From an uncultured Granulosicoccaceae bacterium (GTDB lineage Bacteria; Pseudomonadota; Gammaproteobacteria; Granulosicoccales; Granulosicoccaceae), in assembly GCA_937931165.1 (NCBI GenBank), contig CALHCI010000191.1:1-23488 (forward strand): a DNA stretch of 23,488 bases, given 5' to 3'. Positions 16,791-17,309 of this stretch are shown piece after piece (position 1 is the first letter of the stretch; the number at the start of each line of letters is the position of its first letter). The notes below the pieces were generated by a model, which saw nothing but the letters and a program-made list of their open reading frames with translations, ran no database searches and had not been told where the DNA came from. The translations under genes were made by a program, and so were the position numbers.

Positions 16791-17309
16791 CTATGCAATC
16801 AGATGCCGCTCTTCTTCGGCAACAATATAACCGCGACACTTCTTACTGCCACACTGGCACGGGATGGCAAAGTCTGCCGGCCAGGAGTAATCGATAGTAA
16901 GTTCAGCTCCGGCCTTCACTTTGCGGATTACACCCAAATACAGCCCCTTCACACCGGTTTCGGGGTCAGGCGTTTCATCATCCCAGTCAAACAGCTCGCA
17001 GTTGGGACGGCAGCTGTGGTTGAGAAAACGAAACGGCGCTTTGGGCACCAGCAGCATATCGTTGCCCAGCTCCATCACATAGCGCGGATCATGCTTTGCG
17101 TCACTGACGATCTTGCCTTTGATGCGACCGATTACCGCGTCTTTTTTTAAATCTTTTTTGGCAAACAGACCGAGCCCGCTGCCGCTGTCTTTCACTTCAA
17201 TTTTTTTATCCAGCTTATTCTTTTTCTTGCTGTCTTTTTTCCTACCCTCTTTTTTCGGACCGTCTTTTATCTTGTTATCTTTTATCTTATTATCTTTTTT
17301 GGGGCTCAA
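16791..17309 (-). CDS. SET-domain protein lysine methyltransferase with an N-terminal lysine-rich, histone-H1-like tail
   Basis: All SET motifs are present: GLGLFA (GxG), RFLNHSCRPNCEL (NHSC), ELTIDYSW (catalytic Tyr), and post-SET CQCGSKKCRGY. The N-terminal 40 aa are KKDNKIKDNKIKDGPKKEGRKKDSKKKNKLDKK. The only available start upstream of the tail is TTG 17309. A GTG at residue 38 would remove the tail. Confidence 0.8.
   Translation of the reverse strand: MSPKKDNKIKDNKIKDGPKKEGRKKDSKKKNKLDKKIEVKDSGSGLGLFAKKDLKKDAVIGRIKGKIVSDAKHDPRYVMELGNDMLLVPKAPFRFLNHSCRPNCELFDWDDETPDPETGVKGLYLGVIRKVKAGAELTIDYSWPADFAIPCQCGSKKCRGYIVAEEERHLIA

Follow-up and report, generated by a model that had tools for sequence, protein, structure and literature searches.

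The 23,488-nt stretch of DNA analysed here, referred to below as the window, is located on contig CALHCI010000191.1 (assembly GCA_937931165.1) of an uncultured Granulosicoccaceae bacterium. Its reverse strand carries, at positions 16791..17309, a gene for a SET-domain protein, delineated from the list of open reading frames (ORFs) and from the sequence as 172 codons with a TTG start and a TAG stop codon. An identical 172-aa product is given by public gene callers. This product is composed of a lysine-rich N-terminal leader, a SET domain and a post-SET cysteine motif, and its coding sequence is flanked by genes for a LacI-family regulator and a TIM-barrel protein.

Comparison with the Pfam SET model (PF00856) yielded a score of 53.5 bits (E=3.7e-14; gathering cutoff 22.4) across the full length of the model (positions 1-105), and the corresponding envelope places the SET core at residues 45-142 (16884..17177, reverse strand). 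The GxG motif is represented by G45-L-G47, the pseudoknot motif RFLNHSCRPNC by residues 94-104 (with NHSC coded at 17010-17021) and the catalytic-Tyr motif ELTIDY by residues 136-141, of which Y141 is specified by the codon at 16887-16889. The post-SET CxCx4C motif (16836..16859, reverse strand; C151-Q-C153-GSKK-C158) is invariant in the family alignment and aligns with that of NSD2 and ASH1L; by analogy, C151, C153 and C158 would make a Zn site together with C100. In an alignment of 30 family members, residues G45, G47, Y77, N97, H98, C100, N103, D140, Y141, C151, C153 and C158 were shown to be invariant, as were T138 and I139. The residue two positions before the catalytic Tyr, which is Ile in the window protein, is presumably the Phe/Tyr-switch position, and we assume that an Ile at this position would not restrict the enzyme to mono-methylation.

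A phmmer search against all PDB chains retrieved only SET lysine methyltransferases (KMTs), with NSD2, ASH1L, MLL1-4 and SETD2 at E-values of 1e-12 to 1e-9, and the aligned motif pairs included RFLNHSCRPNC/RFMNHSCQPNC and ELTIDY/ELTFNY (both NSD2) as well as CQCGSKKCRG/CRCGASNCSG. The AlphaFold2 model, which was built on the 30-member alignment, exhibited a mean pLDDT of 80.8, with values mostly between 75 and 96 in the SET core. When this model was compared with the PDB using Foldseek, the best 50 matches were all SET KMTs, MLL1 (2w5z) being first (E=1.8e-10) and followed by ASH1L, MLL3, NSD1 and SETD2, with a TM score of ~0.6 when normalised to the entire query, tail included. A preliminary description of this DNA, made from the sequence alone, had reported every catalytic SET signature, and all of these were indeed present; its alternative of a generic beta-fold similarity fails, as the Pfam, phmmer and AlphaFold/Foldseek results all converge on SET. 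No domain besides SET was found in the Pfam scan of the protein, its sole match in the NCBIfam scan was a sub-threshold one to LegAS4/AnkI, and no signal peptide was detected. On sequence grounds, the window protein is a stand-alone SET plus post-SET enzyme with an intact set of catalytic motifs.

The fold and the GxG, Y, RFxNHSCxPNC, ELTxxY and CxCx4C elements are held in common with eukaryotic KMTs of the SET2/NSD/ASH1 and MLL types, at 25-31% identity across ~145 residues. Unlike these, however, the window protein is devoid of AWS/pre-SET and reader domains and of partner-complex subunits, and consists of a ~135-aa core with a basic tail.

A word-indexed protein search identified 313 relatives at E ≤1e-3, and the 120 of these that were listed are 110-232 aa in length, with SET as the only precomputed Pfam domain; some have already been named 'SET domain-containing protein-lysine N-methyltransferase' by NCBI. 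In addition, a pattern scan across GTDB species, each represented by a single genome, retrieved 254 relatives, the best 80 of which were compared as described below.

Translation and repeat structure of the lysine-rich leader

The leader (17199..17309, reverse strand; residues 1-37) is made up of seven pentapeptide units enclosed by the initiating Met and an Ile. These units are SPKKD (unit 1; AGC CCC AAA AAA GAT), NKIKD (unit 2; AAT AAG ATA AAA GAT), NKIKD (unit 3; AAC AAG ATA AAA GAC), GPKKE (unit 4; GGT CCG AAA AAA GAG), GRKKD (unit 5; GGT AGG AAA AAA GAC), SKKKN (unit 6; AGC AAG AAA AAG AAT) and KLDKK (unit 7), and units 6 and 7 correspond to the ancestral leader of unexpanded relatives. 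Residues 1-36 comprise 47% K/R and carry a net charge of +11, and the calculated pI is 7.0 for the core alone and 9.4 for the whole protein. The AlphaFold model predicts disorder across residues 1-29 (pLDDT 46-56) and a short helix at residues 30-36. The leader is A-rich, and its low GC content (0.31) is due to its Lys codons only.

Analysis with Tandem Repeats Finder (TRF) revealed an array at 17221..17300 (reverse strand) with a period of 15, 5.3 copies, 75% matches and a score of 62, within which a nested period-8 signal at 17263-17298 coincides with the stretch that had been noticed initially. The array is thus best described by a 15-nt (5-codon) unit, and not by the shorter one proposed in the preliminary description. 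DNA alignments further showed that a 75-nt in-frame segment located directly after the TTG codon (17232..17306, reverse strand; 25 codons, corresponding to five extra 15-nt units) is missing from L002, L084 and L085. Of these, L002 represents the closest other species, with identities of 89% for SET, 90% for LacI and 96% for the histidinol dehydrogenase (HisD)-like protein.

Leader alleles were drawn from the cluster of proteins grouped with the window protein at 90% identity (P0121/P0001, P0122, P0123, P0124 and P0125), the contigs of which all display the LacI-SET-AP_endonuc_2 gene order. A single N-to-K change characterises P0001 and P0124, while P0125 has a leader of the same length with the units SPKKD-NKIKD-GRKKD-GRKKD-GRKKD, P0123 is shorter by 4 residues (SPKKD-NKIKD-GQKKD-GKKKD-SKKKKN) and P0122 possesses an unexpanded leader. 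In the DNA alignment of seven loci, the TTG codon and the reading frame are kept in every variant and all length differences are multiples of 3; no frameshifted allele was seen among the aligned loci. Judged from these alignments, the leader array is a coding variable-number tandem repeat (VNTR) that expands, contracts and homogenises without loss of frame. The proposal that the tail codons derive from tandem repeats that could expand or contract by slippage is consequently borne out by the period-15 array and by alleles in which, with the frame kept, the number and type of units vary between close relatives.

Unexpanded alleles were observed to carry A8 runs in their first few codons, as in L002 at ~2460-2475 (AGCAAAAAAAAG) and L084 at ~2392-2405 (AAGAAAAAAAAT), and these runs could be slippage-prone.

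Only two tandem arrays were detected in the whole 23.5-kb window, the leader array being one. The second is also coding and is positioned at 14893-14938, inside an aroD-like gene (14368-15267, reverse strand), where 2.6 copies of an 18-nt unit encode the DNVLAG-DNVLAG stretch of a protein resembling type I dehydroquinase. Differences between the window and the near-identical contig L001 are concentrated in this repeat, the aroD-like gene being 94% identical, compared with 99-100% for its neighbours.

The leader had initially been likened to histone H1. Tails of H1 are rich in Ala, Pro and Lys, contain S/TPKK-type motifs and have few acidic residues. The likeness stands in so far as the leader is predicted to be disordered and is strongly basic and of low complexity. 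It is, however, a loose analogy only, an acidic residue being present in most copies of the xxKK[D/E] unit. In composition, the leader has one SPKK (residues 2-5) and one GPKK (residues 17-20) motif, no Ala and six acidic residues among 36. Repeat-built lysine-rich tails are also known from nucleoid proteins, examples being the pentamer-repeat length variants of chlamydial Hc2/HctB, the PAKKA repeats of mycobacterial HupB/Hlp and the KPAA repeats of Pseudomonas AlgP. Such tails are disordered, lysine-rich, of short period, coded by tandem repeats and variable in length between strains, as is the case for the window tail. The latter differs in being fused to an enzyme rather than to a DNA-binding fold, and in having an xxKK[D/E] unit with a regular acidic residue in place of Ala or Pro.

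The TTG start codon (17307..17309, reverse strand) is invariant in 7/7 aligned loci. Among the ten group-1 orthologs (71-89% identity; from Granulosicoccaceae or 'Chromatiales' metagenome-assembled genomes, MAGs), nine possess a TTG codon followed by Ser-Lys-Lys-Lys/Arg, in the context TTG-AGC-AAR-AAR, and the remaining one has ATG at the equivalent position. A purine-rich AGAGA located 8-12 nt upstream of TTG is conserved in relatives. Furthermore, the lacI stop codon, the intergenic region and the TTG codon of the window are homologous to those of L002 at the DNA level, and the 15 leader codons shared with L002 differ by six synonymous changes (AAG/AAA three times, AAT/AAC, CTG/CTT and GTG/GTA) and two non-synonymous ones. 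The preservation of frame in every leader variant provides further evidence of leader translation.

It may alternatively be supposed that the tail is not made at all, initiation taking place no earlier than the internal GTG (residue 38) and the K-rich frame being an artefact of annotation. TTG is indeed a weak start codon, AGAGA is a poor match to a Shine-Dalgarno sequence, and the gene calls of two homologs (P0015 and P0018) begin near the first beta-strand. However, the internal GTG is replaced by GTA in L002 and by GTC in L084 and L085 and is not preceded by a Shine-Dalgarno-like sequence, and the GxG motif for S-adenosylmethionine (SAM) binding would be lost if translation began at the Met near residue 78. 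Together with the TTG-SKKK arrangement in nine of the ten orthologs and length variants that are all multiples of 3, these observations make this alternative highly improbable. The choice between TTG and an internal start, which had been left to N-terminal proteomics, could be addressed by comparison: translation from the TTG at 17309, and hence synthesis of the tail, represents by far the best-supported reading of the aligned sequences, and the tail is very probably translated.

Relatives, basic tails and ancestry

The best 80 of the 254 relatives comprise 18 from Granulosicoccaceae or 'Chromatiales' MAGs and three from Myxococcota or 'Deltaproteobacteria', the rest belonging to Planctomycetota (including Pirellulales, Planctomycetales and the anammox genus Kuenenia). 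The rarity of SET proteins in Gammaproteobacteria that had been put forward is consistent with this distribution as far as the present subfamily is concerned, since Granulosicoccaceae and 'Chromatiales' MAGs are its only gammaproteobacterial members among these 80.

A rough neighbour-joining tree, calculated without support values from the best 80 relatives only, placed the Granulosicoccaceae sequences and one planctomycete (L039) in a single clade nested among Planctomycetota. The Granulosicoccaceae clade is split into two paralog groups, the second of which (L012-L018 and L021) exhibits 54-60% identity to the window protein, and both paralogs are present in two MAGs (L006 with L016, and L008 with L021). 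The SET core has a GC content of 0.53 and a GC3 of 0.60, values that fall inside those of the neighbouring genes or slightly exceed them (GC3 0.44-0.59), and such a native-like GC3 implies that acquisition was not recent. Any transfer between phyla would thus be old, having preceded the radiation of the Granulosicoccaceae and the duplication within this family. Recent horizontal transfer was rejected, as the SET core is similar to the neighbouring genes in GC, GC1, GC2 and GC3; the horizontal acquisition initially suspected therefore left no compositional sign. A phage or mobile origin was likewise discarded, a scan of viral contigs having produced a single distant match (29% identity), and PADLOC defence models gave no match.

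The C-termini of family members were read through to the stop codon, and a recognisable post-SET motif was present at 78 loci. Group-1 Granulosicoccaceae proteins combine an N-terminal SKKK leader with an acidic or neutral C-terminus, whereas in the group-2 paralogs the leader is a short RKR and the K-rich tail is located at the C-terminus, as in KKLQKNKKGKKGKKGKK or KKKLKRKSSKK. C-terminal extensions rich in K/R were found at roughly a third of the 78 loci, mostly planctomycete and myxobacterial, and of the 39 residues in that of L039, 19 are K/R. This family has thus repeatedly combined a near-neutral catalytic core with a basic extension at one or the other terminus. We know of no earlier description of such basic tails at either end of family members, of a tail-building VNTR with natural alleles or of the Planctomycetota-centred distribution, within which one gammaproteobacterial family is nested.

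The recurrence of tails at both termini is the main reason why a protein-level role, that of an electrostatic tether to DNA or RNA, is favoured here over an mRNA-level or neutral explanation. According to the latter, the tail would have no function as protein, the A-rich 5' coding sequence aiding initiation at the weak TTG and the extra five units being a neutral product of slippage. The conserved TTG, the A-rich leader (GC 0.31) and the predicted disorder of the tail are in line with this explanation, as are the restriction of the insertion to one shallow lineage and the evident viability of unexpanded alleles (P0122, L002). A neutral origin is plausible for the five additional units in particular. 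For the tail as a whole it is unlikely, if still of some weight: Lys residues have been kept through synonymous AAA/AAG exchanges (six synonymous against two non-synonymous changes relative to L002), each allele is in frame and K-rich, and equivalent C-terminal basic tails occur in paralogs and distant relatives, where effects on initiation cannot apply.

The tail could also be seen as part of a host-directed nucleomodulin, which an alga- or invertebrate-associated bacterium would export into a eukaryotic host, where the K-rich repeats would serve as a nuclear localisation signal (NLS) or in chromatin binding, the SET domain would methylate histones and the repeat polymorphism would be driven by the host. 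Eukaryotic histone KMTs are the nearest matches in both sequence and structure, and basic stretches resembling an NLS occur in known bacterial SET effectors, such as KHRKKR in chlamydial NUE (PMC3980110). One close relative (P0007; L007) originates from a bacterium associated with the bryozoan Bugula neritina, Granulosicoccus and Planctomycetes co-dominate kelp surfaces (PMC8944128, PMC9238374), and the tail evolves rapidly. Nevertheless, the window protein has neither a signal peptide nor an effector domain beyond SET according to Pfam, its score against NF043024 T4SS_AnkI (LegAS4/AnkI) is 12.8 bits compared with a cutoff of 550, no secretion-system gene is present in the window and the conserved weak TTG start would be unexpected for an abundant effector. 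Moreover, members of the family are common among free-living Planctomycetota (Kuenenia and Pirellulales being examples) and occur in Myxococcota, and this spread points to an endogenous role. We consider a host-directed function quite unlikely, and the emphasis that the preliminary description had placed on secreted effectors does not fit the LegAS4/AnkI score or the relatives in free-living Planctomycetota. Secreted nucleomodulins such as Legionella RomA/LegAS4, Chlamydia NUE, Burkholderia BtSET and Bacillus BaSET do have in common with the window protein a bacterial SET domain and, in some cases, short basic NLS-like stretches; the window protein, in contrast, has no ankyrin repeats and falls far below the cutoff of the LegAS4/AnkI model.

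Genomic context of the SET gene

The LacI-family regulator gene (17385-18404, reverse strand) is located upstream of the SET gene and is co-oriented with it; its product matches the Pfam LacI and Peripla_BP models, and its NCBIfam matches are all below the equivalog cutoffs. Downstream, following a gap of 47 nt, is a co-oriented gene for an AP_endonuc_2/xylose-isomerase-like TIM-barrel protein (15880-16743, reverse strand; Pfam 92.7 bits). Coordinates and Pfam matches therefore agree with the position between a LacI regulator and an isomerase-like gene that had been described. On the other side of lacI, divergent genes at 18577-21728 (forward strand) encode a histidinol-dehydrogenase family protein, a short-chain dehydrogenase/reductase (SDR) and the alpha and beta subunits of sulfopyruvate decarboxylase, which scored 149.7 bits (cutoff 147.95) and 217.4 bits (cutoff 221.5), respectively. 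This hisD-like/SDR/decarboxylase operon looks like one for organosulfonate catabolism of the 2,3-dihydroxypropane-1-sulfonate (DHPS)/sulfolactate type.

The region between the divergent lacI and hisD-like genes contains two exact copies (18439-18454 and 18490-18505) of the 16-bp near-palindrome ATGTAAGCGCTTGCAT, corresponding to four strand matches versus 0.34 expected. No further copy with ≤3 mismatches was found elsewhere in the window, including ahead of the SET gene, and the two copies are likely, as candidates, to represent LacI operators. A LacI operator near the SET gene was searched for and rejected, since inverted-repeat and pattern searches placed palindromes solely in the lacI/hisD-like region. 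A promoter-like site, TTGACA-16 nt-TAAGAT (17361..17388, reverse strand; 10/12 consensus positions), was identified by scanning and overlaps the lacI stop codon; its -35 TTGAC is invariant in seven related loci. Two antisense ORFs, at 17113-17343 and 16803-17150 (both forward strand), were discarded as genes, being mirror images of the K-rich and SET frames.

Adjacency of LacI and SET was observed solely in the clade of the window and in L002. The TIM-barrel gene is missing downstream of SET in L002, a gap of ~480 nt follows SET in L084 and L085, and in the other Granulosicoccaceae orthologs and all planctomycete relatives SET is located in unrelated neighbourhoods. A conserved operon partner was also sought and rejected: clustering of the ORFs within 4 kb at the 80 loci, from which SET itself and spurious antisense ORFs overlapping it were set aside, yielded only small lineage-specific groups in common. 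Synteny confined to a close clade, the lack of a shared neighbour and the lack of an operator near SET indicate that this context is probably not functional. From these comparisons, the placement of SET beside lacI and the TIM-barrel gene is read as a lineage-specific accident of gene order. The LacI-controlled catabolic unit of the preliminary description is not supported, given that the adjacency is clade-limited, no neighbour is shared across 80 loci, the operators lie elsewhere and SET is preceded by a promoter-like site of its own.

A synteny of a different kind, not common to the window, was observed in a planctomycete sub-clade (Kuenenia and other Planctomycetota; L022-L026, L031 and L060), where SET is directly followed by a membrane-protein ORF of ~850 aa and, ~2.3 kb further on, by an ORF of ~575 aa. 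Judged by sequence, the former is presumably an RND/MMPL-type transporter, and the latter seems to resemble an aminotransferase or oxoamine synthase.

The genomic context also bears on the question of whether the enzyme might act on a small molecule, in connection with the adjacent catabolic genes and under LacI control. A precedent is BurB, a SET-domain methionine S-methyltransferase, which shows that SET domains can act on metabolites in organosulfur metabolism (PMC12542666). BurB (9l4t) is among the PDB matches (E=0.0026) and is, like the window protein, a small bacterial stand-alone SET protein from a host with organosulfur metabolism; the window encodes sulfopyruvate decarboxylase alpha/beta and an MTTB-family protein, and lacI, SET and the TIM-barrel gene follow one another without a terminator-like site in between. 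However, the similarity to BurB is marginal and restricted to the C-terminal half (20.7 bits over residues 96-167 only, compared with ~50 bits for NSD2 and histone KMTs), and protein-lysine methyltransferases resemble the window protein far more closely. With SET in unrelated contexts in other Granulosicoccaceae and Planctomycetota, no operator near SET and basic tails that would make little sense for such an enzyme, a small-molecule substrate is regarded as very unlikely.

Proposed function and other features of the window

Taken together, the window gene is best read as encoding a native SET plus post-SET protein lysine methyltransferase with a translated, slippage-remodelled basic leader that serves as a tether to a polyanion, a reading to which a probability of about 60% is assigned. 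The enzyme belongs to a large Planctomycetota-centred bacterial family and is native to a marine Granulosicoccaceae lineage. From an ancestral leader of ~12 residues (M-SKKKNKLxKK), tandem amplification of a 15-nt unit, five times in the window lineage, has generated the predictedly disordered leader of ~37 residues composed of xxKK[D/E] pentapeptides, and replication slippage or unequal exchange would keep reshaping the array in frame, giving rise to strain alleles. The basic tail, N-terminal here and C-terminal in paralogs and many planctomycete relatives, would tether the neutral core to a polyanion, which may be nucleoid DNA or ribosomal or other RNA, and the enzyme, with SAM as methyl donor, would methylate lysines in one of the cell's own proteins that associate with nucleic acids. 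The conserved weak TTG start may hold the enzyme level low. The position between LacI and the TIM-barrel gene would allow at most read-through, with no functional coupling to sugar or sulfonate catabolism.

Several considerations weigh against this reading, in addition to the rough nature of the tree. The function of the tail, the class of substrate and the transfer of methyl groups to protein lysines are what we infer from sequence comparison. An NLS-like signal would account for the basic tail equally well, as would a low-complexity expansion that is neutral and tolerated at a disordered end, and the A-rich codons after the weak TTG could be under selection at the mRNA level. As regards transcription, the promoter consensus scan of the region returned four sites where 3.1 are expected by chance, and conservation of the -35 element may partly reflect coding constraint where it overlaps the lacI stop codon. 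Since the terminator scan detected no terminator-like site between lacI and SET or between SET and the TIM-barrel gene, co-transcription of lacI and SET by read-through, and with it indirect control by LacI, is possible.

The closest functional analogy to the proposed mechanism is provided by two small single-domain prokaryotic SET enzymes with proposed targets among the DNA-packaging proteins of their own cells. One is cpnSET of Chlamydia pneumoniae, an Hc1 methyltransferase that interacts with both Hc1 and Hc2; the other is Go1-SET of Methanosarcina mazei, with MC1-alpha as the proposed target (PMC3980110). Neither was among the matches examined, and they are likened to the window protein by function, not by orthology. 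To our knowledge, no polymorphic K-rich tail assembled from repeats has been reported for cpnSET or Go1-SET. A more far-reaching proposal, in which the family would act as an endogenous bacterial 'chromatin or ribosome writer', a minimal SET enzyme kept on the nucleoid or on rRNA by a basic tail with a length tuned by repeat slippage, so that the strength or place of tethering differs by strain, is put forward tentatively and is in our view doubtful. Planctomycetota have been reported to retain histone-fold genes persistently (PMC10627809), and given the concentration of the family in this phylum, bacterial histone-like proteins may be among the natural substrates of these SET enzymes.

That bacteria from the environment encode SET-domain proteins has been known since the 2000s, and most experimental work on bacterial SET enzymes concerns secreted effectors of pathogens (PMC3980110). 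The present family is already auto-annotated as SET methyltransferase, and the locus is fairly ordinary and represents no new type of system. The locus nonetheless offers leads on the role of SET methyltransferases inside free-living bacteria: the start codon has been settled computationally, and the natural alleles of tail length and unit type constitute ready-made variants for testing whether the tail targets nucleic acids. Immediate experimental use is limited by the fact that the organism is known from metagenomes only.

Additional features of the window were also recorded. At 12185-14331 (forward strand), the beginning of an MTTB-family (trimethylamine methyltransferase-like) gene lies within a TetR-family gene; the MTTB-family match, at 263 bits, is below the equivalog cutoff of 525 bits, and the product may be a non-pyrrolysine quaternary-amine methyltransferase. 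The TIM-barrel and aroD-like genes are separated by a 612-nt gap (15268-15879), in which neither a long ORF nor, at gathering thresholds, a match to Rfam was found. Two ORFs, at 5713-6720 (reverse strand; 335 aa) and 7425-8786 (forward strand; 453 aa), gave no Pfam match at E ≤1e-5. The only structured RNA detected in the window by Rfam at gathering thresholds is a tRNA gene at 674-746 (forward strand), which is followed by genes for an SPFH/Band-7 protein and an RtcB RNA ligase (1122-3520, forward strand).

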